Positions 3,337-51,743 of a DNA stretch of 64,000 nucleotides are shown here, piece by piece. Positions within the stretch are counted from its first letter, which is position 1. Each line of letters starts with the position of its first letter. The notes beneath the pieces were generated by a model. That model was not told the origin of the DNA. It saw nothing but the letters and a program-made list of their open reading frames with translations, and searched no databases. The stretch lies in the NCBI RefSeq assembly GCF_041248615.1, contig NZ_CP158426.1. The stretch is one strand, 5' to 3'. The stretch comes from Escherichia coli (lineage in GTDB: Bacteria; Pseudomonadota; Gammaproteobacteria; Enterobacterales; Enterobacteriaceae). The translations under genes were made by a program, and so were the position numbers.

Positions 3337-3342
3337 CAAAAA

Positions 3343-3366
3343 GCCCGCTATAAAAGCGGGCTTTTC
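3343..3366. terminator. Rho-independent terminator hairpin after cbl (shared with asnU on opposite strand)
   Basis: Stem gcccgct/agcgggc with 5-nt loop followed by TTTT. Confidence 0.5.
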
Positions 3367-3373
3367 AGAAATT

Positions 3374-3449
3374 TGGCTCCTCTGACTGGACTCGAACCAG
3401 TGACATACGGATTAACAGTCCGCCGTTCTACCGACTGAACTACAGAGGA
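3374..3449 (-). tRNA. asnU: tRNA-Asn (GUU anticodon)
   Basis: Identical 76-nt tRNA-Asn sequence on minus strand; located between cbl and yeeO. Confidence 0.95.
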
Positions 3450-3609
3450 ATCGCTGTTGAGGCACATCTTAACGGCGAAAAATCTTTTGTCAAACCCGAT
3501 TTTTAAATTTCCCAACTGTTTGCCGTTTCTATCAACAGTTTGTTGCATTTGCAGACAATTTGTTGGCGAAAATCTTTGCAGCTTTGCTGATTCTCCCTCA
3601 TTATTTGAA

Positions 3610-5097: not shown

Positions 5098-5197
5098 ACG
5101 ACAAAGTGCAGATTATTTCAGCAAACGATTTCAAATTTAAAAAACAGGCTTTGACATTGTGGATGGGCATCGCTAATATTCGCCTCGTTCTCACGAT

Positions 5198-5273
5198 TCC
5201 TCTGTAGTTCAGTCGGTAGAACGGCGGACTGTTAATCCGTATGTCACTGGTTCGAGTCCAGTCAGAGGAGCCA
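5198..5273 (+). tRNA. asnW: tRNA-Asn (GUU anticodon); integration site of island 1
   Basis: Canonical 76-nt tRNA-Asn sequence on + strand, immediately followed by a P4-type integrase gene. Confidence 0.95.
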
Positions 5274-5434
5274 AATTCAAGTTTTCATGCTTATCTGTAC
5301 GTCTCTATTTGTTTACGATTCAGTAAGTTAGCGTGAAAATCCTTCCCGGTGCGTATCTGGTTTTCTCTCTGTATCGGGATAATTTGGTGGTCAGATCTGG
5401 GGTCAGTTTGGTTCGATTCTGGAGTGACCCCCAA

Positions 5435-6696: not shown

Positions 6697-6835
6697 ATCA
6701 GAAATAACGGAAATCATTAAAAATGTAAAAGCAGATCCTGATTGACCGGGATCTGCTTATTGTATTGAGAAGTATTACCATTTTTCTGTTATTATCAATC
6801 GGAAAGTATCTAAAAATATTTGGCCCCAAATAATT

Positions 6836-13700: not shown

Positions 13701-14916
13701 GCATGGAGAGCCACTGGTCGAGAGCCGCTACCTCTACGACCCGCTGGGACGGCGAATGGCGAAAAGGGTATGGCGGCGGGAGCGTGACCTGACGGGGTGG
13801 ATGTCGCTGTCGCGTAAACCGGAGGAGACATGGTACGGGTGGGACGGCGACAGGCTGACGACGGTGCAGACTGACACCACGCGTATCCAGACGGTGTACC
13901 AGCCGGGAAGCTTCACGCCGCTCATCAGAATCGAAACAGACGTGACCGAACTGGAGAAAGCGCAGCGGCGAAGCCTGGCGGAGAAGTTACAGCAGGAAGG
14001 GAGTAAAGATGGTCACGGCGTGGTGTTCCCGCCTGAACTGGTGCGGCTGCTGGACAGGCTGGAGGGGGAAATCCGGGCAGACCGTGTGAGTGACGAAAGC
14101 CGGGCGTGGCTTGCGCAGTGCGGGCTGACGGTGGAGCGGCTGGCGGCACAGATCGAGCCAGTTTATTTGCCTGAGCGAAAAATACATCTTTATCACTGCG
14201 ACCACCGGGGACTGCCGCTGGCGCTTATCAGTACTGAAGGTGCAACGGAATGGCGTGGGGAGTATGACGAGTGGGGGAATCAGCTTAATGAGGAGAACCC
14301 GCATCATCTGTTCCAGCCATACCGCCTGCCGGGGCAGCAGTACGATGATGAATCGGGGCTGTGCTATAATCGTTATCGTTACTACGAGCCGTTACAAGGG
14401 AGGTATATTACACAGGACCCGATTGGGTTAAATGGGGGGTGGAATTTATATAAATATCCGCTGAATCCAATAAATTATGCAGATCCTCTTGGCTTAGCCG
14501 TAGATATAAACCACTTCCCAGTCAACGAAGACATACGAAATTATGCAGAGAAAGTTTGGAATAATCCTAATATCATTACAATTGGAACACATGGTGATCC
14601 TCAATCAGTATATGATGAAAATTATAATAAGATAGATGTCAAGACATTAGCTAATGAGGTTCGAAATCATCCTAAATTTAAACCTGGAATGTCAGTAAGA
14701 CTGTTATCCTGTAATACAGGAAAAGGAAATAACTCTTTTGCACAGCAATTGGCAGATGAACTAGGTGTGAGAGTCTATGCTCCTGACCAATATGACTGGT
14801 ACTATTCAAATGGTAAGGTAGAGCCTTGGGGAGGATTCTATGATGCAAACAATCAATTGCAAATGGACACGAATCAGCCTGGACATGAGTTTACATTCAA
14901 GCGAAGGAAACCATAG
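10735..14916 (+). CDS. rhs: Rhs family polymorphic toxin (RHS/YD-repeat core plus variable C-terminal toxin tip)
   Basis: 1393-aa ORF starting [11 protein letters not shown] as in E. coli Rhs proteins; many YD repeats; core ends at ...[13 protein letters not shown]...YADPLGL (about 14497), followed by an AT-rich 139-aa tip. Confidence 0.9.
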
Positions 14917-14972
14917 GTATGAGGTATTTTCTCTTTATATTTATAACAATCCCCCTTATCTCTGGAGGTCAT

Positions 14973-15521
14973 ATGAGTAATGATAGCGAAAAGATAATAT
15001 CAACATATTCGCTCAATTTTTTATCACCAGATGATGTGAGGAAAGAAGAACTTAAGGCATCACAAGGTGATAGTGATGCTGCATTTAAATTGTACAAATA
15101 TTACCTTTTTTGCGAGCCAAAATCATACAGAAAACAGCACGAATGGTTAATAATATCGGCAAATAATGGAAATGCTATAGCTCAATATAACTTATCAAGA
15201 GAACTTGAGTCAGAAGGAAAAGTAGATGAATCAATACAATGGCTGAAAAAATCAGCGGAACATGGTAATAATTATGCACAATATCAGATGTCAAAATATT
15301 TATTAAAAATAGGTGATATTAGAGGATCGGAATATTATCTAAACTTATCTGCGGATAACGGATGTGTATTTGCAATAAAAGATATTATCAAAAATATGAT
15401 GGATAGTGGAAGGTACGATGACGCCCTCATTTGGGTTGAAAAATTGAAAAAATTGTATCCTGACACAAATACCGAACTTTACATACAAAAAATAACGCAG
15501 AAAAAAAAGCAATCCAAATAA
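14973..15521 (+). CDS. Putative Rhs immunity protein with Sel1-like repeats
   Basis: Immediately downstream of the rhs tip, AT-rich like the tip; GGAGG Shine-Dalgarno before ATG 14973; repeats GNAIAQYNL / GNNYAQYQM resemble Sel1/TPR-like motifs. Confidence 0.55.
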   Translation: MSNDSEKIISTYSLNFLSPDDVRKEELKASQGDSDAAFKLYKYYLFCEPKSYRKQHEWLIISANNGNAIAQYNLSRELESEGKVDESIQWLKKSAEHGNNYAQYQMSKYLLKIGDIRGSEYYLNLSADNGCVFAIKDIIKNMMDSGRYDDALIWVEKLKKLYPDTNTELYIQKITQKKKQSK

Positions 15522-15809
15522 TAATTATATATAATTACTCGCACAGAGTTACAGTATTGCAAGAAATATATCTAGCATATAAAGTCGCCGCCAGTAAAGA
15601 TAAAGTACTGTGTAATCCTTCCTCCCATATAGGGGTAAAAACTTAGCATCCAGTGCCCTCGACTTAATTTTTAGTATTTTCTCTGTGAAGTGACACTTCG
15701 TAGGATTCAGTTCATGTTTACCAGAAAAAAGGTGGTCATTCTGGTGGTCTTGACAATCTCGATTTTTTGTTTTAGCTTTCCAATCAGCCAATTAATGGCT
15801 ACGGCGATC

Positions 15810-15825
15810 CCAGTCAGAGGAGCCA
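15810..15825 (+). repeat. 16-bp direct repeat of tRNA-Asn 3' end (distal att boundary of asnW island)
   Basis: ccagtcagaggagcca is identical to the last 16 nt of asnW (5258..5273); preceded by tacggcgatc, which is also found at the asnT-side boundary (revcomp of 30131..30140). Confidence 0.75.
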
Positions 15826-16276
15826 AATTTTAGTTTTGAGACATCTCTATGAGTCTCAAGACAGTTAAAAAATAAAAATTATTTTTACCCGGTTACCTTG
15901 TAAAAAAGTGACCGGGTTTTTTGATTTCTGTGTTTCGTGCGCTTAATCGAGTCTCACGCTTCAGTGAGCAAATTGCCCCCCAACAGACATCACGATTCGC
16001 AAGGTCAAAAACTTCGTTCCGTGAAGTACCGTACAAAGGTATAGAGAAAAATACCTTATGCTGGATGTCGCTGTCGCGTTTTTATCGGGAAACTATGCGT
16101 AATTGCCACTTTGCCTTCTGTAATCAGAAAAAGAAGAACTGGAATTTTAATAAATATTATTTCTCTGGGAATGGGGATTTTTTATAATCAATATGACGAG
16201 TTGAACATTATATTTTTATAATGATTATATGAGATTAAAGAAATCTGCCATAAAGACAGATTTCTTTAAAATATAA

Positions 16277-16993
16277 TTAGAGATTTGCGACGTTATGATA
16301 AACTTTTTGTACATCGTCGTCATCTTCAAGGGCATCAACAAGCCCTTCAAAGATTTCTAAATCTTCTGGGGAAAGCTCAACTTCAGATTGAGCAATCATT
16401 TCTAATTCTGTTGTTGAGAACTCAGTGATTCCAGCTGCTTTTAGAGCCGCGATTCCTTTATGAAGGTCAGTAGGTTCAGTATAAATAACAATATTACCTT
16501 CTTCTTCAGTTACATCACGAACATCAACTTCAGCTTCAAGTAAAATTTCAAAAATATGGTCAGGGTCTGTTCCTTTAAATACAATCACACCCGTATTGTC
16601 AAACATATAGCTGACAGAACCTGCCGCTCCGATATTGCCGCCTTTTTTATTGAAAATTGTGCGAACGTTAGCAATCGTACGGTTAACATTGGAAGTCAAG
16701 GTCTCAGCGATAATCATTGAGCCATTAGGACCAAAGCCTTCATAACGGCCCTGCACGAACGTTTCATCTCCGCCGCCTTTGGCTTTATCAATTGCTTTAT
16801 CAATAACATGCTTTGGAACTTGTGCCTGCTTTGCTCGTTCAATAACGAATTTTAAAGATGTGTTTAATTCTGGATCGGGTTCACCTTGTTTGGCAGCGGC
16901 ATAGATTTCTACACCGAATTTTGCATAAATTTTAGACGTCGCACCGTCTTTAGCCGTTTTTTTAGCAACAATATTGGCCCATTTACGTCCCAC
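16277..16993 (-). CDS. yeeN: YebC/PmpR-family transcriptional regulator YeeN
   Basis: 238-aa [30 protein letters not shown]..., typical YebC family; synteny next to amn. Confidence 0.9.
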
Positions 16994-17335
16994 TGGAATG
17001 ATCTCCTCGAAAATTTATTTACATTACTGGTAAATCGTTAACATGTGTTAATTCGGCATATTATATCATAACAGGAAAAATCTCGTCTATTAGAAATAAA
17101 AATATTCTAAAGTCATAATCTTATATTTAATTTCATAAAAAATTATATTGTTGGCGGGATTTTTTATAATTGTGTTTTGAAAGCATACTTGCTTTTAATA
17201 TGTGGGAATTATTAAGACGATAATAAAACTCGCATCTGTCCAAGAAAGCAAACAGCCCGCGTTTATTGCAGGCTATTTGCCAGATGTCTTACTTACTCCT
17301 TCACATCTATTTCTGATAAGAAGGTTCAGAACTTA

Positions 17336-32389: not shown

Positions 32390-33442
32390 ATGGGAATTAG
32401 TGTTCGAGTCTTGCAAGCAAATCATGGTGATTGTTTCTTAGTTAGTTATAAGAGCTCAGATAGTGTTTACAACTTGCTAATTGATGGTGGTAATAGCGCC
32501 ACATTTATGTTTGGGGCTCAAGGGCGCTACAGTGGTGAGCTTAAATGTGTACTCGATGATTTGAAAAAAGAAGGTCAGAAAATTGACTTGGTTATCTTAA
32601 CCCATATAGATGATGATCATATCGGTGGTTTGCTTAGGGCTTTTGAAACACCAGGTTATCTATGCCAAATGGCTTCTTCTATCTGGTTTAATTCTTCAAG
32701 ATTTATCACCAAACATTTTAAGGTTGATGAAATTTCAGACAATGATGTCTGTCTTCAAAGTAACTCAACGCAGACAAGTGCTAGGCAAGGGAAGAAACTG
32801 GAAAACTTACTTGATGAAATCAATTGCGAACGGCAACCCATAGTTATTGCGGGGCAGAAGTTTACAAGGGGTCCGTTCACATTCACGATCTTATCCCCTG
32901 AAGAAGATAATCTACGTAGCCTTCTTCATAAGTGGCCAGATGAGCCAGATCCGGTTACGACATCCGGTGCTTCAAGGGATTATGGAATGAAATTTGAGGA
33001 TATTTTGTCTAATGATAAATTCCAGAGTGATCAATCTGTTTATAATGGTAGCTCAATTGCTTTCATCCTTGAAGCTGATGGTAAGGCTATGCTCTTTTTG
33101 GGCGATTCACATGATGAAAATATTGTCCGTAATTTACGATCTCTTGGTTTTAATGAAGGTAACAAGCTCAAACTCGACCTCGTGAAAATTTCTCATCATG
33201 GTAGCCAGTATAATACTAGCCCTGAATTTTTGTCGCTCATAGATGCGCAAAACTTCATTATATCCACTAATGGGAGTAAGCACGGACTTCCTGATAAGAG
33301 AACTATTGCACGGATTTTATCTTCAGGAGAAGGCAAAATCGGCTTCAATTATTCGCACATTATCCAGGAGATGCTTCACGAAAATGAGGTTCCATTGTAC
33401 TCTTCTCGCCTGGTAGCATTAAATGGAGAAATTAGGCTATAA
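32390..33442 (+). CDS. MBL-fold metallo-hydrolase (first gene of candidate defence operon)
   Basis: Motifs HGDCFLV...IDGG, LVILTHIDDDHIGG and KISHHGS are typical of the metallo-beta-lactamase fold; AGGAAA RBS before ATG 32390; stop overlaps next gene. Confidence 0.7.
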   Translation: MGISVRVLQANHGDCFLVSYKSSDSVYNLLIDGGNSATFMFGAQGRYSGELKCVLDDLKKEGQKIDLVILTHIDDDHIGGLLRAFETPGYLCQMASSIWFNSSRFITKHFKVDEISDNDVCLQSNSTQTSARQGKKLENLLDEINCERQPIVIAGQKFTRGPFTFTILSPEEDNLRSLLHKWPDEPDPVTTSGASRDYGMKFEDILSNDKFQSDQSVYNGSSIAFILEADGKAMLFLGDSHDENIVRNLRSLGFNEGNKLKLDLVKISHHGSQYNTSPEFLSLIDAQNFIISTNGSKHGLPDKRTIARILSSGEGKIGFNYSHIIQEMLHENEVPLYSSRLVALNGEIRL

Positions 33443-34727
33443 AATGACCGCTTCAAATTTGATGGCTTCTAACGCAGTGATCGTGAACGAGGGCAGTGGT
33501 GTTCTTGTTAATGCGATGACTCAAGATTATTCATACGTACTCACAGCAAAACATGTGTTAGCGAAATCAGGTAGTCAAAATATCGTTACTAATCAATATG
33601 GTAACAGTCTTAGAGTGCTTGATGTATTGGTGGGTCAGGAAGAGCATTGCGACTGTGCTGTAATCAAAATTGAATATGTACCAACTGTTGCTCAGCAGTC
33701 CTTCCCTGCAATAGCATTACCCAATTCGGCTTTGCTAAAGTTTGTTGGTTTTCCGGGAACCGAGAGACTAAGCGCTACCCCGCTGAAAATCTATGATGGG
33801 CATGTAACAGATGTAAGGGAGGGGCTGATTAGCTTCACGATAGAAGGCAGTCCCTCAAAAACCGCAATCGATGGAATGTCTGGCGGTGGAATGTATTACA
33901 TAGTTAATGAACATCCCCTCCTTGTTGGTGTAGAATTTGGGATGGACAGTATTCGTCAAGATCTACAATATGGACGTATACAATGTAAAAGTTTAATTGT
34001 TTTTGAAGAGATAATTAATTTAAACAGTGCTGCTCCAATGGTTCCCGCTTATTTGGAGTGTTTTTCACGCTTAAAAGAATATATCTTCGATTTTAATGTT
34101 GTTGATAAAAATAGAGTTCTGAATCTGAAAAACGCATTAAATATTTTTGCAGATGAACTTATAGACAAAGGTATGCCACCACCATTTGAATTAATGTCCA
34201 AATACAAAACTGATTTGTTAGTAGGTCCATATCAAGTTGACGATGTTAAAAATAAAGAATTATGGGTTGCATATTTTGAATTTCTGATAATTTGCGCAAT
34301 TCTTGATAATGTAAGTATTGCCAATAGTTCTTATATAGAAAGTTTAGAGCGGCGTAGGAGAATTCTTTATACTCCGGATGGAAGTAATTGGGTCGGAAAG
34401 CTTGATGTAATCTTAAAAGTTGCTCGAAAGTTATTAGATAAAGATGGCATAGTAATTGTGGCATCTCCAGAAAATGGAGCCGAATTATTACCGGATGATT
34501 TTGAAGTCGATAGGGTTATAAGGAATATTGCGCGAATCGCTAATTCAGGTCCACTTGCTCCTATCGATCAAGTTGAAAAAGAGATGTATAAGAGTTTTGT
34601 ATTAACGCATCTTGAAGGGCTGAGAAAAAAATGTGTTATAAACAAAGAGAGAATGTATGCAGAAGTTGAAGCTGGCTTAGACCAACTTCAGACGTTTAAG
34701 GAAAGCTTTAATGAATTTATTAAATAA
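33423..34727 (+). CDS. Trypsin-like (S1-type) serine protease with C-terminal domain of unknown function (LmuA-like effector?)
   Basis: Candidate catalytic triad in order His (VLTAKHV), Asp (DCAVIKIE), Ser (DGMSGGGMYY); about 230 further residues without recognised motif; start may be 33423 or 33444; overlaps both neighbours. Confidence 0.7.
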   Translation: MEKLGYKMTASNLMASNAVIVNEGSGVLVNAMTQDYSYVLTAKHVLAKSGSQNIVTNQYGNSLRVLDVLVGQEEHCDCAVIKIEYVPTVAQQSFPAIALPNSALLKFVGFPGTERLSATPLKIYDGHVTDVREGLISFTIEGSPSKTAIDGMSGGGMYYIVNEHPLLVGVEFGMDSIRQDLQYGRIQCKSLIVFEEIINLNSAAPMVPAYLECFSRLKEYIFDFNVVDKNRVLNLKNALNIFADELIDKGMPPPFELMSKYKTDLLVGPYQVDDVKNKELWVAYFEFLIICAILDNVSIANSSYIESLERRRRILYTPDGSNWVGKLDVILKVARKLLDKDGIVIVASPENGAELLPDDFEVDRVIRNIARIANSGPLAPIDQVEKEMYKSFVLTHLEGLRKKCVINKERMYAEVEAGLDQLQTFKESFNEFIK

Positions 34728-35262
34728 AGAATTTGATTTGGAATTTCTTAAATCTAGATTTTCTGATGCAGATTTCTATTTTTTTGTTTCTAATGATGAC
34801 TCATCTTATATTTCATGCGTAGCATGCTATTGTGAGAGCGCTAATTACGTGGTTGCGAATTGGACAGCGATTCAGAATTATTTATCTGCTTACTACCAAC
34901 CGAAGGATGAATTAGCTCTTTGGAATATATATTTAGTTTTCTTTTGTTCCGAAAAATTACCGATTTGGGATAAGTACCTTATAGATAATGATAAGTATTC
35001 TGTCAGAAAATTAATTATTGACGGGTTAACTACTCTGCCAAGTATTTCCGAAACTGTAACTTTTCTGAACAATCATCTGCTAGGCGCAGACCTAGAATTA
35101 ACTGAAATAGAGGAGAAGAAGGAGATAGAGTTATCATTAATTGAGTATATAAGTGGAACTCCTTTAGATTCAAAGGTTGAGTCGAGAGATGAGCGTATGA
35201 GCAGAATTGATAAAATTATTAATCTAGTGAGTTCAAATAAAAATGAAAATAAAAAAAGTTGA
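34711..35262 (+). CDS. Small protein (183 aa) of unknown function, translationally coupled (middle component?)
   Basis: ORF overlaps upstream gene by 17 nt and downstream gene by 20 nt; AT-rich; no recognised motif. Confidence 0.5.
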   Translation: MNLLNKEFDLEFLKSRFSDADFYFFVSNDDSSYISCVACYCESANYVVANWTAIQNYLSAYYQPKDELALWNIYLVFFCSEKLPIWDKYLIDNDKYSVRKLIIDGLTTLPSISETVTFLNNHLLGADLELTEIEEKKEIELSLIEYISGTPLDSKVESRDERMSRIDKIINLVSSNKNENKKS

Positions 35263-38200
35263 AATAGAAGGCTTTCGAGCATACAGATTCAAGGAAGATG
35301 GTACTTTCGATTTTACAAATAAAGATGATACGCCATCCAATTTTGTAGCGATCTATGCACCCAATGGCTTTGGAAAAAGTTCATTCTATGATGCGGTTGA
35401 ATGGGCTATTACTCATAATTTAGATAGATTTGCGGGTGAATATAATAAAAAAAATTATGAGCAAGCTGCCAGGAGCACGAAAGAGGACGGTGTTGCACAA
35501 AAAATACTACGTAATAAAGATGTACCAGACAATATTCCTACTCGTGTAACAGTTTTCACTACTTTACCAACTCCATTCGAACAAAGTTTAGGAACAGTTC
35601 GTTCTGATTCTAGAGATATAAGAATCGGCGAGAATAAAAATAAAATCAATGGCTATTTTAGAAAAGTGGTTCTTAGTCAAGATGAAATAGACCGTTTTTT
35701 AAAAGAAGCAAAGCCGCAAGATCGTTATAAGATGTTTATGGAGAGTTTTGGAGGTGAATGGGAAAAGGCGAGACAAGAGCTAACTATACTATTGAATGAC
35801 AATAAGGCGGTTTTGTTAAATCTCGAAAAAAACAAAAATGAACTTCAGGAACAACTAGATCAGCCTGTTGATGCGTCAACATTCATACAATTTAATAAAA
35901 TAGCATCTGAACTTGTAGCAGAAGGTGAAAGTTTACCATTAGTAGATGAAACAACTATAGTTAATACACAGCATGAGCTTTTGGAAAAAATAATCACAAG
36001 AAGTCACGAAATAAATTTTTCCTTAAACAAGAAAAAAATATTGAGAGATTCGATTTCTGAGTATATTTTAAAATTTCCTGATATCAGTTTTCGTACAACC
36101 CAGATTATCGAGAAAAAGAATAGACTAGAAAAAATAAATAAAGGGATAGAAGATGTCGGTCGTTATAAGACATTTCAGTCTACTCTTGAAAAACTGACTA
36201 TCGAAAAGAAAAAGATAAGTCAGAGCTTAAATTTTATAGAAGAATTAGATGGTTTATCCCAAGAGTTTTTAAGCTTGGAATTTAACTTGGAATCAGCTCG
36301 AAAGAAACATAGAGAGATTTCATATAATTATGAAAATGAAAAAACTCTCCTTGATAATTTATTCCAAACAAGAAACCAAAATGATGCTGATTTATCTTCA
36401 ATTGACAAGCGATGCTTATCTATACGTTCTACGTTAGAAAACGCTACGGTTACTTATTCTAATATATCTAATATACAAAATAAAATTTTAAATATAGTTT
36501 CTACGCAAACAGAATTAGAGCACAAACTTAATCAAGTTAGATCCGAATACCAAAAAAACAAATCCGAATTAAACAAAGTATCAGATTTAACAATAACCGC
36601 CAAATCATTACTTTCATCAGACTTAAGTCTAATTGATTTATCTTCAGATTTATTAAAAGAACTAAACAACTTATCGCAAGAACTAAATATATTGGTCCTA
36701 CATGATCAATCAATTCATAACACACAAGAATCTCTTTCTGCACAAATGGGAGTTCACGAACGTCTAATTGCATCGGGCCTTGAGTACTTAAGTTTATGGC
36801 CGACTAATATATGTCCTTTATGTCACAAGCCGCATGACTCTGAGTCCTCTCTTAGAGAACAAGTAACAAATACTGACGTAATATCCATGCTTAGTAAAGA
36901 GAATGCAGCTAAGCTCGAGATATCCTCAAAACGGCGGTCAGAGTTAAATGGCAAGATAGAATCCATCGTACAGAAAGCCCTTGAAATTAAAATGAGTAAA
37001 CTTGAGGTATTAAGTAAAAAGGTCAATCAACAAGGAAATGAGATACATCGAGAAGAACAGCACTATACAGCTCTTTTAGCAGAAAAACAGTCTGTCCAAA
37101 ATCAGTTAAACGAGTTGCAGAAGGCTGTAGCTGGACTAACTAAAGATGAATTATTAGCTCGCTTAGATGCTGAACTTAAAGAATTAGAGGCCAAGAAAAA
37201 TGAAGTGATAAAAAACAAGCTGACCTTGACGAAAAATATTAACGTTAAAAGAACGTTGATTACAGAGTTAAGTGGGGCGATCAATTTACTTAATACGCAA
37301 ATTCATGAAATGATGTCATCATCTAACTATTTAAAAACAAAAGCTTACTCTGAAGAAAATGGCTTGTCATCGGAGTTTTTGAAAGAACATTATGATGATA
37401 AACGCCATTTTTACCTTAAAAATATAAATGGACTCAATTTTGAGATTAATAATATTACCAGCCAATTAAATGATCTTCAGAAAGCTATGATAGCCGATGA
37501 AATGTGGCTGGATTATGAAGAAATGATTTCTGAAAAAGAGAATTTCGAGGATTATATTTCTAAATCAGAAGCGGTTTTACAATCTTATTCATCATTATTA
37601 AAGCAGCATTTTGAACTACCAAAATATGAATCTTTAGTTGAATTGAAAGATTTCCTGATAAGCTCACTTGATAAAGAAACTAGGCTTTATAATGGTCTAG
37701 AGGAACGGCTTGGAAAATATAATTTATTATCAGAACTTTTGAAAACAGCAGAGTCGTTTGTAAAAAGTATTAAGTTGCAGAATGATATTAATGAAACCTT
37801 AGGTCTTATAGAAATAAGAAAAGAAGTTGATTTAGCTCTGACTAAGGAACGAAATCAAGTAATAGAGGAACTTAGAAACTTGATAAAATCTTTCTTTTAT
37901 GAGGAACTCATTAATTCTATTTATAAGAGAATAGATCCACATCCATCACTTAAGAAAGTGGTGTTTCGCCCAGATTTTGACTCATCAGATAAACCTGGTC
38001 TTAATATAGTTGTCAGTGATGAAAAAGGTGATATGGTATCTCCAATATTATTCTTTAGTGCAGCGCAATTAAATATTCTAAGCCTTAGTGTCTTTTTAGC
38101 AAGTGCTTTGCATGCAAAAGATGATAATGGAAATGTAATTGATGTGATTATGATTGATGATCCAATTCAATCAATGGATTCAATTAATATCCTATCCACA

Positions 38201-38380
38201 ATTGATCTTCTTAGAAGTATTACCGTTAGATTCAACAAACAAATAATAATATCAACACATGACGACAATTTCTTTGGCTTGCTCCAACGTAAAATCCCTT
38301 CGGAAATATTGGGTGCCAAGTTTCTTAAATTGGAGAAATTTGGGGTTGTAGTGCCTGTTGATGATTTAAATAATACATGA
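35243..38380 (+). CDS. Rad50/SbcC/SMC-like ABC ATPase with central CxxC zinc hook (LmuB-like?)
   Basis: N-terminal Walker A (VAIYAPNGFGKSSFYD), Q-loop (VLSQDEI), long coiled-coil middle with CPLC at residues 524-527 of 1045 (nt 36812..36823), C-terminal signature-like FSAAQ, Walker B VIMIDDP, D-loop SMD and H-loop ISTHD. Confidence 0.8.
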   Translation: MKIKKVEIEGFRAYRFKEDGTFDFTNKDDTPSNFVAIYAPNGFGKSSFYDAVEWAITHNLDRFAGEYNKKNYEQAARSTKEDGVAQKILRNKDVPDNIPTRVTVFTTLPTPFEQSLGTVRSDSRDIRIGENKNKINGYFRKVVLSQDEIDRFLKEAKPQDRYKMFMESFGGEWEKARQELTILLNDNKAVLLNLEKNKNELQEQLDQPVDASTFIQFNKIASELVAEGESLPLVDETTIVNTQHELLEKIITRSHEINFSLNKKKILRDSISEYILKFPDISFRTTQIIEKKNRLEKINKGIEDVGRYKTFQSTLEKLTIEKKKISQSLNFIEELDGLSQEFLSLEFNLESARKKHREISYNYENEKTLLDNLFQTRNQNDADLSSIDKRCLSIRSTLENATVTYSNISNIQNKILNIVSTQTELEHKLNQVRSEYQKNKSELNKVSDLTITAKSLLSSDLSLIDLSSDLLKELNNLSQELNILVLHDQSIHNTQESLSAQMGVHERLIASGLEYLSLWPTNICPLCHKPHDSESSLREQVTNTDVISMLSKENAAKLEISSKRRSELNGKIESIVQKALEIKMSKLEVLSKKVNQQGNEIHREEQHYTALLAEKQSVQNQLNELQKAVAGLTKDELLARLDAELKELEAKKNEVIKNKLTLTKNINVKRTLITELSGAINLLNTQIHEMMSSSNYLKTKAYSEENGLSSEFLKEHYDDKRHFYLKNINGLNFEINNITSQLNDLQKAMIADEMWLDYEEMISEKENFEDYISKSEAVLQSYSSLLKQHFELPKYESLVELKDFLISSLDKETRLYNGLEERLGKYNLLSELLKTAESFVKSIKLQNDINETLGLIEIRKEVDLALTKERNQVIEELRNLIKSFFYEELINSIYKRIDPHPSLKKVVFRPDFDSSDKPGLNIVVSDEKGDMVSPILFFSAAQLNILSLSVFLASALHAKDDNGNVIDVIMIDDPIQSMDSINILSTIDLLRSITVRFNKQIIISTHDDNFFGLLQRKIPSEILGAKFLKLEKFGVVVPVDDLNNT

Positions 38381-44412: not shown

Positions 44413-45357
44413 ATGACTATGTCCCTGCATACCAAGATAAGTGCCCCTAACACGACAGCGGCGACCAGCGTATCCTCGCTGGATCTGTCAGGCTCCTCAA
44501 AAACGAAATGTTCAACAGCCAGAACCGATATTTATCAGACTGTTACCGACAGCATAATTGCGGCGCTGGAAACCGGAGTAAAACCTTGGGTGTGTCCTTG
44601 GCAGCGAGCTCCCGGTATGTCCGGTTTACCGTCCAATTACGCCACTGGTAAGGCTTACAGCGGAATGAATATCATGTTGCTTTGGTGCAGCGCGTCAAAA
44701 CAGGGATTCTGTGATTCACGCTGGATGACCTACAAACAGGCAAAAGCGGTAGGTGGGCAGGTGCGCAAGGGAGAACACGGCACTACCGCGATTTTCTATA
44801 CCACGCTGGAAAAGGAAAATGATAACGGAGAAACTGACTATATTCCTATGCTGAAAGCATTCACTGTGTTTAATGTTGAACAAATTGACGGTTTACTCCT
44901 GAGTGATGATGCCGTTTTTCCGGCAGAGATCTTTGAGCCATTACCACGTGCAGAAGCACTTTTTCGTAGTAGCGGTGCAACCATTATTGAAAAAGGACAG
45001 AATGCTTTTTTTACACCATCAACCGACGAAATTCGCTTACCTGAACGGTATCTTTTTATTGATGCTGCTAATTTCTACGCAACCGGCCTGCATGAGCTCG
45101 TTCACTGGAGTGGGGCAAAAAGTCGGCTGAACCGTGAAATGAAAGGGAAATTTGGCAGCGAGGGGTATGCGTTTGAAGAGTTGATCGCTGAGCTGGGGAG
45201 CGCATTCCTGATGGCGGATCTGGGGATAGTTGGAGAAGTTCTGCATGACAGTTATATCGCTTCCTGGCTTAAAGCACTGAGGAATGATAAACGCTATATT
45301 TTCAAGGCCGCCAGCGCGGCATCGAAAGCACATCGCTATTTGATGGATAAAAGCTGA
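44413..45357 (+). CDS. ArdC-like anti-restriction protein (N-terminal ssDNA-binding domain plus HExxH metalloprotease-like domain)
   Basis: 314-aa ORF; HELVHW motif in the C-terminal half; architecture and size fit ArdC/DUF1738 proteins of conjugative elements. Confidence 0.6.
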   Translation: MTMSLHTKISAPNTTAATSVSSLDLSGSSKTKCSTARTDIYQTVTDSIIAALETGVKPWVCPWQRAPGMSGLPSNYATGKAYSGMNIMLLWCSASKQGFCDSRWMTYKQAKAVGGQVRKGEHGTTAIFYTTLEKENDNGETDYIPMLKAFTVFNVEQIDGLLLSDDAVFPAEIFEPLPRAEALFRSSGATIIEKGQNAFFTPSTDEIRLPERYLFIDAANFYATGLHELVHWSGAKSRLNREMKGKFGSEGYAFEELIAELGSAFLMADLGIVGEVLHDSYIASWLKALRNDKRYIFKAASAASKAHRYLMDKS

Positions 45358-46200
45358 GTAGCAAAAAGCCGCAAAGGAATGCGGCTTAATGGGCTGGGGG
45401 TACTAAACCAGTAAAGGTTTAGTCAGTAATATTAGTGAAGCAGAGCAAGTATCGAACAGTCATATTCCTGTAGTGGTATTAAGACAACCTTAAGAAGGGA
45501 CTGATGTATAGCTACTCTTGTATACCCATCCATGGAAAATTCGGTTGTATTGCCGGGTTGATATGTGCAGGTTGGTCCCGACCCAAGAAGTTTTTACTGT
45601 GAAAATTGTCAAACTATATCAATGTGGTAACAGCTTCTCTTGTCCCTTTGGTTATTTCAAATTGGACCGGGCTATCTGTTGCAACACGGTTGCTCTGCTT
45701 GAAACAGAGTTAACATATGCAACATCAGATACTTTGAGTTTGATCAGATCATAGCCTCGTAGCTTACTGTCCAAGGTCATATTGAACAGAGTTAAATCGC
45801 GCATTTTACCTTCCATTTCAAGCCTGATTCGGATCCCCCCTGATATGAGATATCTGAAGTGGTCTTTTTGGTCAGTGATACTTACAATACGGTCTTTGTC
45901 CCACGGTGACGTGTTCATACTCAAAGCTCCTGTAATGTTGGAGATTTGAGCATGGTTATCCCTCATGAGCGAGGAACGGACAATGTCCCTTGCGCGATCC
46001 AAGATTGATTTTTCTTATTAAATTAAGCTATGGCTGACCTACGAACGATAGGCAAAATGCTCCTAAAGCTACGGCTTATGACAGTAAAAAACATATTGAT
46101 AAAAATCTGAGCTGGTTTAGAATGCTATAATGGAATAATTATTTATTTTCGGCCTTCAGTTTGATCATTTTTAGAAATCACCCTTTTGAAGGAATCTACA

Positions 46201-46995
46201 ATGGAATCAGAAGAAACGAAAGAAGAGAGTTATCAACAGCGTTCGGAGTTTATCAGAAAAATAATTCAACAGCCTGTTGAGGGTGTCATATCTTCATGCA
46301 CTATACCAAAAAAAATAATTCAATTTTGGGATTCATCCAATACTATCCCTAATGATGTCAGACATTGCATGAAATCATGGCGTATCTTAGAACCTTTTGG
46401 GTATGAGTATTTACTATATGATTTCGTTAGCGCCCAAGAATTTATTAAACATAATTTGGGTGAAACATACAGTGAAGCTTTTGCCAAGTGTACTCATCCT
46501 GCTATGCAATCAGATTATTTCCGATTATGTTATATCTCGGTAAACGGGGGATTTTATGTTGACACTGATGATGTTTATCTGGGTAGTGAGATAAGTAGTT
46601 TTTTCACGGATGATAAGTTAAAAATACAACCTTTATGCTACGATATTTCCACCGATTCTATGATTCCACCAGAAATTTTTACAAAGGAAAATACTTATGA
46701 AGAATCTTGGATTTTTTATTTCAACAACAACCCGTTAATTGCTCCGCCTCATCATGTTATCATTGATAAGGCACTAGAGCAATCCACATACTTACTTAAT
46801 AAATCAAGCTATCCTCTCACAGATATTCAGTCAACAACTGGTCCTGGTAATCTATCTAAATCTATTTTCTCGTGTCGCGAGGAAATAGATTTATTATCCC
46901 AGATTACGGTAGTATCAAACTGGCAAGATATTGCAGAAACTAAGTGGGATTTAGAATACAGAGCTGATTCTAGAAATTGGCGCTTGATGAATTAA
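46201..46995 (+). CDS. DXD-motif glycosyltransferase (Gly_transf_sug-like)
   Basis: QFWDS...AMQSDYFRLCYISVNGGFYVDTDDV motif pattern; GAAGGAA RBS before ATG 46201 (track start 46186 is TTG); AT-rich. Confidence 0.55.
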   Translation: MESEETKEESYQQRSEFIRKIIQQPVEGVISSCTIPKKIIQFWDSSNTIPNDVRHCMKSWRILEPFGYEYLLYDFVSAQEFIKHNLGETYSEAFAKCTHPAMQSDYFRLCYISVNGGFYVDTDDVYLGSEISSFFTDDKLKIQPLCYDISTDSMIPPEIFTKENTYEESWIFYFNNNPLIAPPHHVIIDKALEQSTYLLNKSSYPLTDIQSTTGPGNLSKSIFSCREEIDLLSQITVVSNWQDIAETKWDLEYRADSRNWRLMN

Positions 46996-47010
46996 CATGG
47001 ATTTTTAATA

Positions 47011-49212
47011 ATGAACATTAAAAATAATTTGAAAGGTATTAGCCGTTTTTTTTATTCTTTTTACTTACGCTCTCGGTTACTTCTCCCAGCGCAAAAATCA
47101 TCGACCTTTAATACATTAAATCAGAATGAAGGCGTTATTAGCAGGATTTACGCTATAAACTTAGAACGGGAAGCGATTAGATGGGCAGATTTAAATAAAG
47201 AACTGGGTAAAATACTAGATAAATCTAATAAAAAATTAACGAGCCAATTAACCAGATTCTCTGCTATAAACGCCAAAGAAATGTCAGACATTCTCAATGA
47301 GGAAGAGGTTATTCCTTATTATACTTTAGCAGACCAGTTGTACGTTGACCCTCAACCAAAAATCTTACCCGATAAATTTGATCTCGATGTCCCTATAAAA
47401 ATGAGTAAAGCGGAAATTGCTGTAGCATTATCGCATCTAAATGTTATTAGGCTTGTTGCAGAAGGTTCTGATGCATATGCTTTAGTGCTTGAGGATGACG
47501 TGTATTTTGAAAGAGATTTTGCCAAAACCTTAGATGCTGCTTGGTCTGAAATGATTCAAGCTGACAGATCTTCACCTGGTTTTGATATCTTATATTTGTC
47601 ATTTAAAGAGGTTATGAATGGCGCGAAAAAGAAAATTATTTCGAAAAGCATATTTAAACCAGAGCGAGGGTTATGGTATTTTTCAGGATATGTATTATCT
47701 AAGAAAGGAGCAAATAAAATCCTCTCACTCCTCCCAACTTATGGACCAATTGACTTATGGATAAATCATCAATTTGAGAAACTCGATGTGAGGGCAGTAT
47801 ATAAGTCGATCATTTCTCAGAGGTTGGATTTTAACTCTTCAAATTCCTATTCAATATTACCTACCTTAGTGAAGATTGGTATTATTGACAATGAAAAAGC
47901 TTCCAGTTTTAATGAACTTCCAAATTATTGGCCTGTTTTTGCATTTGGTGTAAGTGGTTCGGGTATTTCTTCTTTGGGTATGGCACTATCAATGCTTGGC
48001 TATAAGTGTTGTAGTGATATTGATAGACTTCCCAATGCAGACTTAAAAAATCTATTAAGTAATTCAGAGCAGAATGAATTCAATGCTTATGTAAATGTTG
48101 GCTGTCTCAGTAAGTATATCGGCATATTAAAAAAACAATATCCAAAAGCAAAATTTATAATTACCACGAGTGAATCAAAAGAAATCGAAGATGTTATTTT
48201 TAATATAATTGAGGAGATCGTTGATACTGACTATGTTGTATTGCATTCAGATGAAAAAAACAAATGGAAGGTTATATGTGAATACCTTCAATGCCCACCA
48301 CCTATTTCAGCGTACCCAGAAATGGCTGACATTATTCCTAGGCAGATTATAGATATCACCAGTGCAGCACAAATCAATAATTCAGAAATTAACATGATAC
48401 ATGACATTTCCCCTTGGATATTAGAAAGAAAGAATTTTTCAGGAAATGGTTTTTTTATAAAAGATAATCCGAAGAGAATTGAAAAAGAGCTTGCTGATTT
48501 CTTCATTAATGATTCACTACAAAATATTAATAATAACTATTGGGAAATTCGCGATGATACTTTCCCTGGAAATCTTGGACTGTTTCGACCTCAAAATGTG
48601 ATTCAAAATGATATTAGTGGTTTAGGTCTTGTAGTTAAGGAGGAACAGTTAGGCGTTAGAGAGTTTAGTGCTGCTGCGATTTCAAGTAGAATGAAGTTCC
48701 TATATGGCCGATTTGAAGTGTCCCTACGAGCGGCAAATGTTGCAGGGATAGTAACCGGCTTCTTTTTACATAGAGATTCGCCTCGTCAAGAAATCGATAT
48801 TGAGTTTGTTGGAAATCGATCTGATCATATGTTGATCAATGTTTTTTATAATCCTGGTGATGAAGGTGCAAAGTTTGATTATGGATATCGTGGTACACCA
48901 ACTCTTATTCCTTTAGGTTTTGATGCTTCTGAAGAGTTTCATGATTACATGATTGAATGGAGTCCTGATGAGATAAAATGGTTTGTGGATGGAGTTATGG
49001 TTTATCGTAGAGGAGTTTGGGGGCCTACACCTATACCTCATTTACCCATGACCCTTCATGCTAACACTTGGCCAACCCGTTCCAAGGAACTGGCGGGACG
49101 TCTCCACACGCGTTCCTTACCCTGTATCACTTATATTAGGAAAATATGTATTGATGCAACAATGGATGTTAATAATCCAAAATTAAATGACCAGACAGTA
49201 GTGGCTGGTTAA
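47011..49212 (+). CDS. Multidomain protein: N-terminal GT25-like glycosyltransferase, central P-loop-like region, C-terminal GH16-like domain
   Basis: N-terminal YAINLEREAIRWADL...LSHLNVIRL resembles family-25 LPS glycosyltransferases; C-terminal EIDIEFVG matches the GH16 ExDxxE catalytic motif; AT-rich. Confidence 0.5.
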   Translation: MNIKNNLKGISRFFYSFYLRSRLLLPAQKSSTFNTLNQNEGVISRIYAINLEREAIRWADLNKELGKILDKSNKKLTSQLTRFSAINAKEMSDILNEEEVIPYYTLADQLYVDPQPKILPDKFDLDVPIKMSKAEIAVALSHLNVIRLVAEGSDAYALVLEDDVYFERDFAKTLDAAWSEMIQADRSSPGFDILYLSFKEVMNGAKKKIISKSIFKPERGLWYFSGYVLSKKGANKILSLLPTYGPIDLWINHQFEKLDVRAVYKSIISQRLDFNSSNSYSILPTLVKIGIIDNEKASSFNELPNYWPVFAFGVSGSGISSLGMALSMLGYKCCSDIDRLPNADLKNLLSNSEQNEFNAYVNVGCLSKYIGILKKQYPKAKFIITTSESKEIEDVIFNIIEEIVDTDYVVLHSDEKNKWKVICEYLQCPPPISAYPEMADIIPRQIIDITSAAQINNSEINMIHDISPWILERKNFSGNGFFIKDNPKRIEKELADFFINDSLQNINNNYWEIRDDTFPGNLGLFRPQNVIQNDISGLGLVVKEEQLGVREFSAAAISSRMKFLYGRFEVSLRAANVAGIVTGFFLHRDSPRQEIDIEFVGNRSDHMLINVFYNPGDEGAKFDYGYRGTPTLIPLGFDASEEFHDYMIEWSPDEIKWFVDGVMVYRRGVWGPTPIPHLPMTLHANTWPTRSKELAGRLHTRSLPCITYIRKICIDATMDVNNPKLNDQTVVAG

Positions 49213-49490
49213 TCATTAGAGTGAAAAGTAAATATTAGTAAGGCACTGGTAAAAATGTAGACACTATCAGTGCCTTAGTAGTTATCCCTCTGGATGGTTT
49301 TTTGACAATAATTTCCGTTTCTGGCACGGAACGGACAGAAAGCAGGGCCACCAAATCTCTCACGAGCCAAAAACCTAAATTATGATCTGACAGATACATG
49401 TATCAATGAAACTGTCGCTGTCAGATCAATTACGCCTTACTATCTGAAAATTATTTGATTTTCTGCATCGTGCATTCAAATTAACAATGT

Positions 49491-50342
49491 TCAGGAGGCA
49501 TAAACTGAAAGGAGTTCTTTAGCTGCCAATTGACCAAGTGCGTTGGCTGCAAAAGGACTGTCACCTGTCAGTACCTTACGATCTTTGTATACGCTTCCTT
49601 TAATATCATCATTAACAATATTCATCCCCATTTGCTTAAGTGCATCGCCAAAATACCATGTGAGATGGCCCGGCATATAACCAATGTCAGGCGTCTGCTT
49701 ATCAGCTGAATCAGGGAAAGCGCAAATAGAATACTCTTTTAGAGGGTTTTCACCATTGCGCAGCGAAAGGAATGCTGCTGGGCCATGGCAAAGGGATATG
49801 ACGAAGCGGTCATTGTCCATGAACCAGCGAAGAGTATCGGCTACTGCGCTGCTTTCTGGCAGCCCAATCAGTGCGCCGTGGCCACCAGGAATAAACACGG
49901 CAGCATATTCACTTTGCTTGTTCAGGCTATTCAATACATCAGACAATTTTTCAGGATTTTGGAACTTGTCTCTATACCGGCTGAAAAATGGCATAACTTT
50001 CTCATCCTTGTGCGGCATGGCCCAGTATTCGAACTTTGTCATGTAACCTGAGATTGTCGCAATGTCAAAATCAAAACCAGCAGCATGCAGGTGATACATT
50101 GGAATAAGCGTTTCAACAGGATGGTTTCCCGTTGAGAACAGAGCCCCGCTATCAGTCATCAGGTAACGCTCATCCGCAGCGATGACCAGCACCTTCTTCC
50201 CTCCCATGCACTGTTTGGGATAGTCGTAGTCACTAAGGTCAGATACGGGGCTGGTAAACTGACTAAGGGAATAGTCAGAGGGGAAAAATGCGTTTTCTTC
50301 AGCATGATCCACTTTCGGATGTTTACTTTTATCATTTGTCAT
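49491..50342 (-). CDS. HchA/Hsp31-like glyoxalase (DJ-1/PfpI family), island-borne paralog
   Basis: ORF 49491..50504; start placed at ATG 50342 (MTNDKSKHPKVDHAEENAFFPSDYSLSQFTSPVSDL...), 283 aa, strongly resembling recalled E. coli HchA including ...SLCHGPAAF...; the longer ORF reads into the IS2 end. Confidence 0.85.
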   Translation of the reverse strand: MTNDKSKHPKVDHAEENAFFPSDYSLSQFTSPVSDLSDYDYPKQCMGGKKVLVIAADERYLMTDSGALFSTGNHPVETLIPMYHLHAAGFDFDIATISGYMTKFEYWAMPHKDEKVMPFFSRYRDKFQNPEKLSDVLNSLNKQSEYAAVFIPGGHGALIGLPESSAVADTLRWFMDNDRFVISLCHGPAAFLSLRNGENPLKEYSICAFPDSADKQTPDIGYMPGHLTWYFGDALKQMGMNIVNDDIKGSVYKDRKVLTGDSPFAANALGQLAAKELLSVYAS

Positions 50343-50514
50343 TACGTATTCCTCGTTGATTGGTGTTAACTCTCTTTCTCGGGCCTGAATTCGCCTGTTA
50401 TATGGGCGACCAGGATAGCCTGATAGACTGGCCCCATGAATCTCCAGACAACCAATATCACTTAAATAAGTGATAGTCTTAATACTAGTTTTTAGACTAG
50501 TCATTGGAGAGCAG

Positions 50515-50880
50515 ATGATTGATGTCTTAGGACCGGAGAAACGCAGACGGCGTACTACACAGGAAAAGATCGCTATTGTTCAGCAGAGTTTTGAACCGGG
50601 AATGAAGGTCTCCCTTGTTGCCCGGCAACACGGTGTGGCAGCCAGCCAGTTATTTCTCTGGCGCAAGCAATACCAGGAGGGAAGTCTTACTGCTGTGGCC
50701 GCAGGAGAGCAGGTCGTTCCTGCCTCTGAACTTGCTGCTGCCATGAAGCAGATTAAAGAACTCCAGCGCCTGCTCGGCAAAAAAACGATGGAAAATGAAC
50801 TCCTTAAAGAAGCCGTTGAATACGGGCGTGCAAAAAAGTGGATAGCGCACGCGCCCTTATTGCCCGGGGATGGGGAGTAA
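50515..50880 (+). CDS. insC: IS2 transposase OrfA (InsC)
   Basis: [53 protein letters not shown]... matches recalled IS2 InsC. Confidence 0.85.
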
Positions 50881-51743
50881 GCTTAGTCAGCCGTTGTCTC
50901 CGGGTGTCGCGTGCGCAGTTGCACGTAATTCTCAGACGAACCGATGACTGGAAAGATGGTCGCCGCAGCCGTCACTCAGATGATACGGATGTGCTTCTCC
51001 GTATACACCATGTTATCGGAGAGCTGCCCACGTATGGTTATCGTCGGGTATGGGCGCTGCTTCGCAGACAGGCCGAACTTGATGGTACGCCTGCGATCAA
51101 TGCCAAACGTGTTTACCGGATCATGCGCCAGAATGCGCTGTTGCTTGAGCGAAAAACCGCTGTACCGCCATCGAAACGGGCACATACTGGCAAAGTGGCC
51201 GTGAAAGAAAGCAATCAACGATGGTGCTCTGACGGGTTCGAGTTCCGCTGTGATAACGGAGAAAAACTGCGAGTCACGTTCGCGCTGGACTGCTGTGACC
51301 GTGAGGCACTGCACTGGGCAGTCACTACGGGCGGCTTCGACAGTGAAACAGTACAGGACGTCATGCTGGGAGCGGTGGAACGCCGCTTCGGCAACGAGCT
51401 TCCGGCGTCTCCAGTAGAGTGGCTGACGGATAATGGTTCATGCTACCGGGCTAATGAAACACGGCAGTTTGCCCGGATATTGGGGCTTGAACCGAAGAAC
51501 ACGGCGGTGCGGAGTCCGGAGAGTAACGGCATAGCAGAGAGCTTCGTGAAAACGATAAAGCGTGACTACATCAGTATCATGCCTAAACCAGACGGGTTAA
51601 CGGCAGCAAAGAACCTTGCAGAGGCGTTCGAGCATTATAACGAATGGCATCCGCATAGTGCACTGGGTTATCGCTCGCCACGGGAATATCTGCGGCAGCA
51701 GGCCAGTAATGGGTTAAGTGATAACAGGTGTCTGGAAATATAG
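50838..51743 (+). CDS. insD: IS2 transposase OrfB (InsD, DDE integrase domain)
   Basis: 301-aa ORF overlapping orfA in another frame, as in IS3-family OrfAB arrangement; DDE-type catalytic region. Confidence 0.85.

Follow-up and report, generated by a model that had tools for sequence, protein, structure and literature searches.

Two adjacent plus-strand genes, here called A and B, lie in a 64,000-nucleotide stretch of Escherichia coli DNA (RefSeq assembly GCF_041248615.1, contig NZ_CP158426.1; hereafter the window), on an integrative and conjugative element (ICE). Gene A encodes a glycosyltransferase of the GT32 type, while gene B encodes a fusion of a GT25 glycosyltransferase, a sulfotransferase-like middle domain and a GH16 domain. 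Judged from sequence comparison, the pair is the two-gene version of a self-contained, horizontally mobile cassette, A-B(-C), in which the third gene is optional. This cassette is rare and uncharacterised, and it has spread by horizontal transfer over many phyla. The catalytic motifs are intact in A and in both enzymatic domains of B, so that three intact sugar-handling activities are predicted. These activities would probably serve the cytoplasmic building and remodelling of a beta-linked glycan, and we tentatively favour a function of this chemistry in conflict between cells and their invaders.

Domain architecture of proteins A and B

The ATG of gene A at 46201, which is also the RefSeq start, is preceded by a GAAGGA ribosome-binding site; the mechanically called open reading frame starts at TTG 46186. 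Protein A matches the Pfam family PF04488 (Gly_transf_sug, GT32) with 36.2 bits against a cut-off of 23. Its YVDTDD sequence is the DXD motif for binding of metal and nucleotide sugar, and HPAMQSDYFR (residues 99-108) matches the conserved HPxxxSDxxR region of GT32, a retaining family. Residues D121, D123, H99-P100 and R108 are invariant in an alignment of 35 homologues, and the A family has an invariant set of its own, made up of the DXD motif, HP..M..D..R and a C-terminal W..(S/E)YR.D.RNWR. Kyte-Doolittle hydropathy over a 19-residue span peaks at 0.68 in A and 1.37 in B, and thus neither protein contains a membrane segment or a signal-peptide core.

An AlphaFold2 model of B, built from 60 homologues, is confident, with a predicted local distance difference test (pLDDT) score of 86.5 and a predicted template modelling (pTM) score of 0.79. 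The N-terminus matches PF01755 with 55.8 bits (cut-off 24), and three residues of its LEDDV motif, E161, D162 and D163, are invariant across 60 sequences. A profile of the B family matches the GT25 domain of human COLGALT1 structures (E 3e-10). Against PHROGs, the GT25 region finds a phage "glucosyltransferase" family (E 2e-9) and otherwise weak, generic glycosyltransferase matches only. GT25 is an inverting family whose characterised members form beta-1,4 linkages. B has PF01755 and an intact DXD in common with LgtB, LgtE, Lic2A, LpsA and human COLGALT1, and by family it is expected to be inverting and beta-linking. However, those enzymes have a single function, on the core of lipooligosaccharide (LOS) or on collagen, whereas in B the GT25 domain shares one polypeptide with a sulfotransferase relic and a GH16 domain, and it is found also in bacteria without lipopolysaccharide (LPS).

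The middle of B scores 18.6 bits against PF17784 (Sulfotransfer_4) in the context of the whole protein, which is below the cut-off, and 25.3 bits as an isolated domain, which is above it; 40 of 43 members of the B family have the match. In comparison with PF17784 sulfotransferases such as Schistosoma SULT-OR and Streptomyces Cpz8, B lacks the basic P-loop residues (its remnant reads GVSGSGISS) and the ~50 residues that hold the 3′-phosphate-binding region in the canonical enzymes. A working sulfotransferase was rejected for the absence of the motifs that bind 3′-phosphoadenosine 5′-phosphosulfate (PAPS), namely the Lys/Arg-Thr-Gly-Thr of the 5′-phosphosulfate-binding (5′-PSB) loop and the Arg...Ser region of 3′-phosphate binding (3′-PB). 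The domain is probably a degenerate, truncated and non-catalytic sulfotransferase fold. One divergent relative of B, P0156 (797 aa), retains GLRKTGTTS, with the RKTGTTS that B has lost, as well as TTRD..W..S; it matches a Pfam sulfotransferase family at E 1.2e-27 and is apparently functional in this respect. The intact domain of P0156 suggests that the ancestor was a three-enzyme protein and that the lineage found in the window lost its sulfotransferase activity.

At the C-terminus, PF00722 (GH16) matches residues 544-694 with 108 bits (E 3.6e-31, cut-off 22). The three catalytic residues of the ExDxE signature, E594 (nucleophile), D596 and E598 (acid/base), are invariant across 60 sequences. 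In Foldseek, the model of this domain superposes on Bacillus lichenases, with the beta-jelly-roll of 1mac as match (E 2.5e-19, template modelling (TM) score 0.87) and also matches Crh5 and XTH-type enzymes. The ExDxE clade of GH16, comprising lichenase, XTH and Crh, cleaves or transfers beta-1,4-linked glycans. B has its fold in common with Bacillus lichenases, plant XTH/EG16 and fungal Crh; its EIDIEF motif is invariant, and the motif context, QEIDIEFVGN, is close to the lichenase DEIDIEFLG and to the DEIDFEFLGN of XTH. In contrast to these enzymes, which are secreted to work on polysaccharides of the cell wall or the diet, the GH16 domain of B is predicted to be cytoplasmic, is ~25-30% identical to them, and is attached to a glycosyltransferase of an inverting class (GT25 here, GT2 in a sister family). 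The NCBIfam equivalog for BglS, NF047856, matches B at E 1.7e-30 with 106 bits, far under its cut-off of 300. The RefSeq name of B, "family 16 glycosylhydrolase", wrongly points to a catabolic glucanase, and we correct it here. The ratio of nonsynonymous to synonymous substitution rates (dN/dS) of B lies at 0.13-0.20 when the copies from E. coli, Yersinia, Klebsiella and Serratia are compared, indicating purifying selection.

An initial annotation of the window, made from the sequence by a model, had described two adjacent plus-strand reading frames encoding a DXD-type glycosyltransferase and a 733-aa protein with a GT25-like N-terminus and a GH16 EIDIEF motif near the C-terminus, without obvious signal peptides and in AT-rich DNA. 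The analyses above agree with each of these points, and the GC content of the A-B cassette is 35%, against 49% in its flanks. The domain annotation and structure prediction that it had called for upheld the GT and GH assignments (Pfam, AlphaFold2, Foldseek). Its "P-loop-like" middle holds as a description of the PF17784 fold, but not of a working P-loop.

Distribution of the cassette and of its GH16 module

Relatives of B, at 35-59% identity, are present in 132 of 100,044 species genomes (one genome per species was scanned) and in at least 12 phyla. The taxa are Alpha-, Beta-, Gamma- and Deltaproteobacteria, Campylobacterota, Bacteroidota, Actinomycetota, Chloroflexota, Planctomycetota, Nitrospirota, Nitrospinota, Acidobacteriota, Verrucomicrobiota, Omnitrophota and a Desulfosporosinus. 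A word-indexed search gave more than 1,700 relatives, and the best 120 are all full-length, with the same architecture and ~50% identity or more. An exhaustive profile search of 1.84 billion cluster representatives gave ~32 full-length clusters at the 50% identity level, with 324 representatives at E <1e-30. The cassette occurs in 4 of 5,426 complete E. coli genomes (two of the records being one strain), always within the ICE of the window, and on 10 of 72,556 plasmids. By tblastn it is on none of 50,697 phage records, and true relatives are on just 5 of 2.9 million IMG/VR contigs. Neither the architecture nor the operon is described in any paper found in the library that was searched, and term searches within the papers on DefensePredictor and on metagenomic selection likewise gave nothing. 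The combination of a glycosyltransferase with GH16, which the initial annotation considered unusual, is thus rare but not unique, since it defines a tightly conserved family that nearly always comes with a GT32 partner.

The organisation of the cassette was counted in 80 fetched loci, of which 72 had enough upstream sequence for a tally of A and 65 were used for C. A homologue of A immediately precedes B, on the same strand, in 66 of the 72, often with a 4-bp overlap between the two genes. C, found in 33 of the 65, is a carbamoyltransferase of the NodU/CmcH type (~540 aa, PF02543 and PF16861), usually located just downstream and sometimes divergently upstream. The window lacks it, as do the versions in Klebsiella, Yersinia, Serratia, Pseudomonas and Burkholderia. 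All-against-all clustering of the neighbours revealed no fourth conserved gene. Five loci (L055, L065, L077, L079 and L080) have B without an A-like gene within 10 kb by tblastn, and L077 among them keeps C. No substitute glycosyltransferase is evident in the five, whose neighbours were not individually domain-scanned; these loci either represent a variant that works without A or have the partner encoded elsewhere.

The C-terminal part of B also occurs in a sister architecture, in which an N-terminal membrane GT2 synthase with an RRRRW motif and several membrane segments precedes a module consisting of D.(S/Y)PW plus GH16 (P0218, P0219, P0222, P0226 and P0239; loci L104 and L105). These GT2-GH16 genes stand alone, without A or C, and outside defence contexts. 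The module has been joined at least two times to glycosyltransferases of families that are classed as inverting. Since GT25 and GT2 are both in such families, the partners of the GH16 module would form beta linkages, and this recurrent fusion is the best available evidence that the GH16 domain acts on the beta-glycan of its fused partner, by trimming or by transferring it.

Genomic neighbourhood and the element that carries the cassette

Among 12 contexts that were annotated individually, 8 have known defence genes within 10 kb of the cassette. On the ICE of the window this is an ABC-three-component system, with the anti-restriction gene ardC adjacent to the cassette as well, and on a Yersinia ICE an OLD-family ATPase-nuclease. 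The Bradyrhizobium context has BilABCD, RES-Xre and large helicase-nucleases, an Aliarcobacter plasmid has a Lit-family protein and a Shedu nuclease, and a Citrobacter IncC plasmid has a DUF262 protein. The remaining three are metagenome contigs, carrying a TCAD9-type ternary system, SIR2 and PIN (L101), a PLD-SNF2 helicase and an Eco57I-type enzyme (L102), or an OLD nuclease directly upstream of the cassette together with BrnA (L103).

A wider Pfam scan took in the four closest neighbours to either side in ~71 loci, divided over three independent batches with 438 proteins in all. In batches one and two, AAA_15 and AAA_21 were on top, and SMC_N, DEAD, UvrD, ResIII, HerA, OLD_TOPRIM, HsdR and Cas1 were also found; AAA_15 accounts for 12 of the 438 proteins. 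In batch three, integrases and resolvases were the most frequent, with AAA_21, UvrD, DNA methylases, DUF4238 and OLD_TOPRIM coming next. PADLOC recognised Old (E 3e-240) and LmuB (E 1e-69) in the first batch. OLD-family nucleases are near the cassette in ~9 of the ~71 loci, which is too few for an obligate partner. In five loci, including L013, L034, L050 and L051, a protein of ~1,126 aa is found close to the cassette. In Bradyrhizobium it has RNase_H_2 and Upf1-like helicase domains (AAA_11, AAA_12, AAA_19 and AAA_30), and it resembles a helicase-nuclease of defence type that has not been catalogued.

In the window, the cassette is cargo of a ~52-kb ICE, as the initial annotation had recognised. 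At one end of the element, a tyrosine integrase is located beside tRNA-Asn next to mtfA; the other end adjoins a frameshifted gene for an Ig-like adhesin, annotated yeeJ at the same position in a sister strain. From the yeeJ side, a cargo zone (ComEC-like gene, ABC-three-component system, UbiD/UbiX/LysR block, ardC) is followed by A and B, then by hchA and IS3, and finally by mobC, the coupling protein and a VirB-type secretion system. On both the E. coli and the Yersinia ICE, the cassette comes after ardC, on the same strand, and points toward mobC. On a Klebsiella IncFII plasmid it sits in the leading region, with ssb/psiB/psiA to one side and a DNA methylase plus an antirestriction gene to the other, all on the same strand. 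E. coli ST167 has a sister ICE in which ardC directly adjoins mobC, and the cassette is therefore a discrete insertion between these two genes. This sister element (L106, NZ_CP093919.1 1964665-1983847) lies beside the same yeeJ, and in its cargo zone type I restriction-modification genes are accompanied by an AAA ATPase and an HNH endonuclease. In this ICE family, the cargo zone is a hotspot for defence. Relatives of ArdC are present in 274 of 5,426 E. coli genomes.

DNA comparison places the mobile unit of enterobacteria at ~45966-49280, from a 235-bp non-coding leader to a terminal hairpin, with homology to the Yersinia ICE stopping at 49277 (Table 1). A search for repeats found no att-like direct or inverted repeats at the borders of the cassette, only the hairpin after B. 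Counts from a promoter and terminator scan were no higher than in shuffled sequence, and an Rfam scan of cassette and leader gave chance-level matches only. The recombinase remnant that adjoins the leader is 82% identical to two intact 200-aa integrase genes that bracket the cassette on the Klebsiella plasmid (L002). These encode tyrosine recombinases consisting of the catalytic domain only, at 10740-11342 and 15399-16001 of that locus, in the same orientation. Similar small integrases adjoin the cassette in L036 and L055, and recombinases of this 200-aa type may move the cassette.

Table 1. Positions of the cassette genes, their domains and motifs, and adjoining features in the window
Feature	Position	Strand	Description
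ardC (anti-restriction)	44413-45357	+	Pfam ArdcN and MPTase-PolyVal; same strand as A and B
Tyrosine recombinase remnant adjoining the cassette	45517-45980	-	small, ~200-aa type; RefSeq pseudogene
Conserved non-coding leader	45966-46200	+	left homology edge: Yersinia ICE from 45967, Klebsiella plasmid from 45966
Sigma-70-like site TTGATA-16-TAGAAT	46096-46123	+	in leader; consensus match only
Gene A	46201-46995	+	264 aa; GT32-like (PF04488) DXD glycosyltransferase, soluble
YVDTDD (DXD) motif of A	46555-46572	+	residues 119-124; metal and nucleotide-sugar binding
Gene B	47011-49212	+	733 aa; GT25, degenerate sulfotransferase-like, GH16
GT25 domain of B	47143-47736	+	residues 45-242; PF01755 E 7e-15
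LEDDV motif of GT25 domain	47488-47502	+	residues 160-164 of B
Truncated sulfotransferase-like domain of B	47923-48330	+	residues ~305-440; PF17784
P-loop remnant GVSGSGISS of B	47947-47973	+	
GH16 domain of B	48487-49101	+	residues 493-697; lichenase/XTH/Crh type
EIDIEF catalytic motif of GH16 domain	48790-48807	+	residues 594-599 of B
Hairpin just 3′ of B	49236-49280	+	16-nt arms, 88% complementary; right edge of conserved cassette

In the cargo zone, ~8 kb upstream of the cassette, an AT-rich block at 32390-38380 (GC 0.31-0.36) holds a ComEC/Rec2-family protein and then the annotated ABC-three-component system, made up of two ABC-3C genes and a 1,045-aa AAA ATPase. Downstream of B, 49491-51743 carries a second, ICE-borne hchA (glyoxalase III) and then IS3, part of it ~91% identical to hchA of another E. 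coli strain. The Yersinia ICE lacks this block and has a 192-aa and an 87-aa gene in its place, which marks the hchA/IS3 block as a secondary insertion. At 10735-17000, the core gene of an RHS locus reaches a GC content of 0.64 and then falls sharply to 0.35, the usual signature of a swapped C-terminal toxin tip with its immunity gene. At 965-6700, nac, cbl and yeeO are interspersed with three tRNA-Asn genes, the third of which is directly followed by a frameshifted tyrosine integrase. The ICE is bounded by a fourth tRNA-Asn that lies outside the window. Several island-integration sites are clustered here.

Predicted chemistry, candidate roles and significance

From family membership and intact motifs, A, as a retaining GT32-type enzyme, would add an alpha-linked hexose from a nucleotide sugar, and the inverting GT25 domain of B would add a beta-linked hexose. 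The GH16 domain, belonging to the ExDxE clade, would then trim the beta-glycan or transfer the glycan onward. The sulfotransferase-like middle would remain as a degenerate scaffold, while C, where present, would O-carbamoylate a free hydroxyl of the product. Because A and B are soluble and no exporter is linked to them, the chemistry would take place in the cytoplasm or at the inner membrane face. We regard this predicted enzymology as likely, and as better supported than any biological role of the cassette. The functional analogy is to cyclic beta-1,2-glucan synthase (Cgs/NdvB), which combines glycosyltransferase and glycoside-hydrolase-like domains in one cytoplasmic polypeptide, so that one protein builds and processes a beta-glycan. 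Cgs, however, is unrelated to B in sequence, being a very large membrane protein with GT84 and GH94 domains, and it is encoded on the chromosome for housekeeping or virulence rather than in a mobile cassette.

Of the readings that were weighed, a conflict role is favoured because the main clue is the genomic setting among defence genes. We hold this role to be plausible without being the safer bet; within it, defence against phages or mobile elements would be most likely, and counter-defence less so. The sparse and patchy spread over genomes and phyla counts for a conflict role, as does insertion into an ICE whose sister carries type I restriction-modification in its cargo zone. That A-B(-C) is a defence system in the strict sense is a more doubtful proposition. 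Equally speculative is the idea of a new class of immune or conflict system, one that works through cytoplasmic glycan chemistry and not through nucleic-acid cleavage, depletion of NAD or nucleotides, or membrane disruption. Such a system might glycosylate a universal component of host or invader, or might make an antiviral glycoside. In a conflict role, the chemistry would act on a target that bacteria share whether or not they have an outer membrane, and not on LPS. Prokaryotic viperins, which are defence-island enzymes of biosynthetic type with no obvious sensor, provide a precedent for defence by a small-molecule or modification product. The likeness lies in the enzyme-only make-up; there is no homology, and an antiviral product of the cassette is hypothetical.

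Several observations weigh against a conflict role. No domain of the kinds typical of defence systems, be it a sensor, a nuclease, a membrane-disrupting or another effector domain, can be recognised in the cassette, and neither A nor B matches any model of PADLOC 2.0. In four of the 12 annotated contexts, those of Serratia, Burkholderia, Pseudomonas and the Klebsiella plasmid, there are only helix-turn-helix, toxin-antitoxin, mobile-element or ordinary genes. The enrichment near defence genes has no matched control to set it against; the share of AAA_15 among the neighbours would be tens of times the genomic background as generally estimated. Co-location in variable hotspots can also reflect cargo that hitch-hikes. 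Lastly, the cassette lies in the leading region of the Klebsiella plasmid and beside ardC on the two ICEs, each time sharing the orientation of the anti-restriction, ssb and psiB genes, an arrangement as compatible with counter-defence as with defence.

The absence of a sensor or effector domain makes physiological biosynthesis a serious rival, although on balance we consider it unlikely. Here, the cassette would be ordinary accessory cargo that makes a small soluble or lipid-linked, sometimes carbamoylated beta-glycan serving as a signal, compatible solute or envelope precursor, and it would resemble cytoplasmic Nod-factor assembly or cyclic-glucan synthesis. All enzymes of the cassette are of biosynthetic type. 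NodU/CmcH-type carbamoyltransferases are typical of glycan and natural-product tailoring, the sister GT2 fusion with its membrane segments resembles a polysaccharide synthase and lies outside defence contexts, and the intact sulfotransferase of the ancestral form P0156 suggests a decorated glycan product. The parallel with Nod-factor tailoring (NodU/NolO, NodH) extends to the optional C, the sulfotransferase of P0156 and the assembly of an oligosaccharide in the cytoplasm. Unlike the Nod system, the cassette has no NodC-type chitin-oligosaccharide synthase, acyltransferase or NodIJ exporter, and it is not confined to rhizobia or symbiosis islands. Moreover, the conserved unit includes no transporter, regulator or precursor-supply gene, extreme rarity with patchy spread across phyla is unusual for a physiological trait, and the neighbourhood is dominated by defence and recombinase genes.

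Modification of a surface glycan, the first role proposed in the initial annotation, would have the enzymes act at the cytoplasmic face on LPS core, O-antigen or capsule, and thereby mask phage receptors or alter serotype. The LOS/LPS core is what the characterised bacterial GT25 enzymes (LgtB, LgtE, Lic2A and LpsA) decorate, the glycosyltransferases of the LPS core work in the cytoplasm as soluble or peripheral enzymes, and the PHROGs match of the GT25 region could be read in the same direction. At the level of the family, these points give way to an indirect, phylogenetic test: Actinomycetota, Chloroflexota and a Desulfosporosinus, all taken to lack LPS, have this cassette too, with its invariant residues unchanged. 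The cassette has no Wzx, Wzy, ABC-transporter or Gtr-type membrane partner, and no polysaccharide-locus genes are among the top neighbour families. It is also missing from the phage records searched, whereas serotype-converting modules are typically borne by prophages, and to our knowledge no known LPS-modification module makes use of a GH16 hydrolase or transglycosylase. Surface modification is improbable as the general function, and a change of LPS or O-antigen as a local consequence in E. coli is possible. That A and B are a fragment of an LPS-core or O-antigen gene cluster was rejected for the phylogenetic spread and the lack of partner genes (ordinary O-antigen fragments with no phenotype being one of the outcomes that the initial annotation had named as refuting it), no such genes being conserved or frequent among the neighbours in ~71 loci. 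The other role that the initial annotation had offered, glycosylation of a different target, is a candidate that the defence-island setting favours.

Counter-defence as the primary role would make the cassette an early-expressed function of the leading region that helps an incoming enterobacterial conjugative element to establish itself in a new host. Leading regions are reportedly hotspots of anti-defence genes, and the location of the cassette on the Klebsiella IncFII plasmid and next to ardC on the E. coli and Yersinia ICEs, at the point where sister ICEs have ardC next to mobC and where a leading-region position is plausible, agrees with such a role. Yet most family members are chromosomal, beside defence genes and with no conjugation genes nearby, and the few plasmid and absent phage occurrences are equally at odds with it, so that we regard this explanation as quite improbable. 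A catabolic beta-glucanase for lichenan- or laminarin-type polysaccharides, which the RefSeq name and the similarity of the GH16 domain to Bacillus lichenases would suggest, is hardly credible and is ruled out by localisation (no signal peptide), context (no linked transporter or sugar-catabolism genes) and fused transferases (GH16 always fused to one glycosyltransferase and paired with another), as well as by the BglS score far short of its cut-off.

Should the cassette prove to act in defence or counter-defence, carbohydrate-active enzymes would join the list of immune mechanisms, and as a compact two-gene unit of 3.3 kb it is directly testable in E. coli. Even without a conflict role, it represents an uncharacterised enzyme architecture that crosses phyla, in which a GT25 domain, a sulfotransferase relic and a GH16 domain are combined in one protein with a GT32 partner and often a carbamoyltransferase. 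The recurring rule by which this GH16 module is fused to inverting glycosyltransferases would point to an uncharted cytoplasmic route of beta-glycan building and remodelling.

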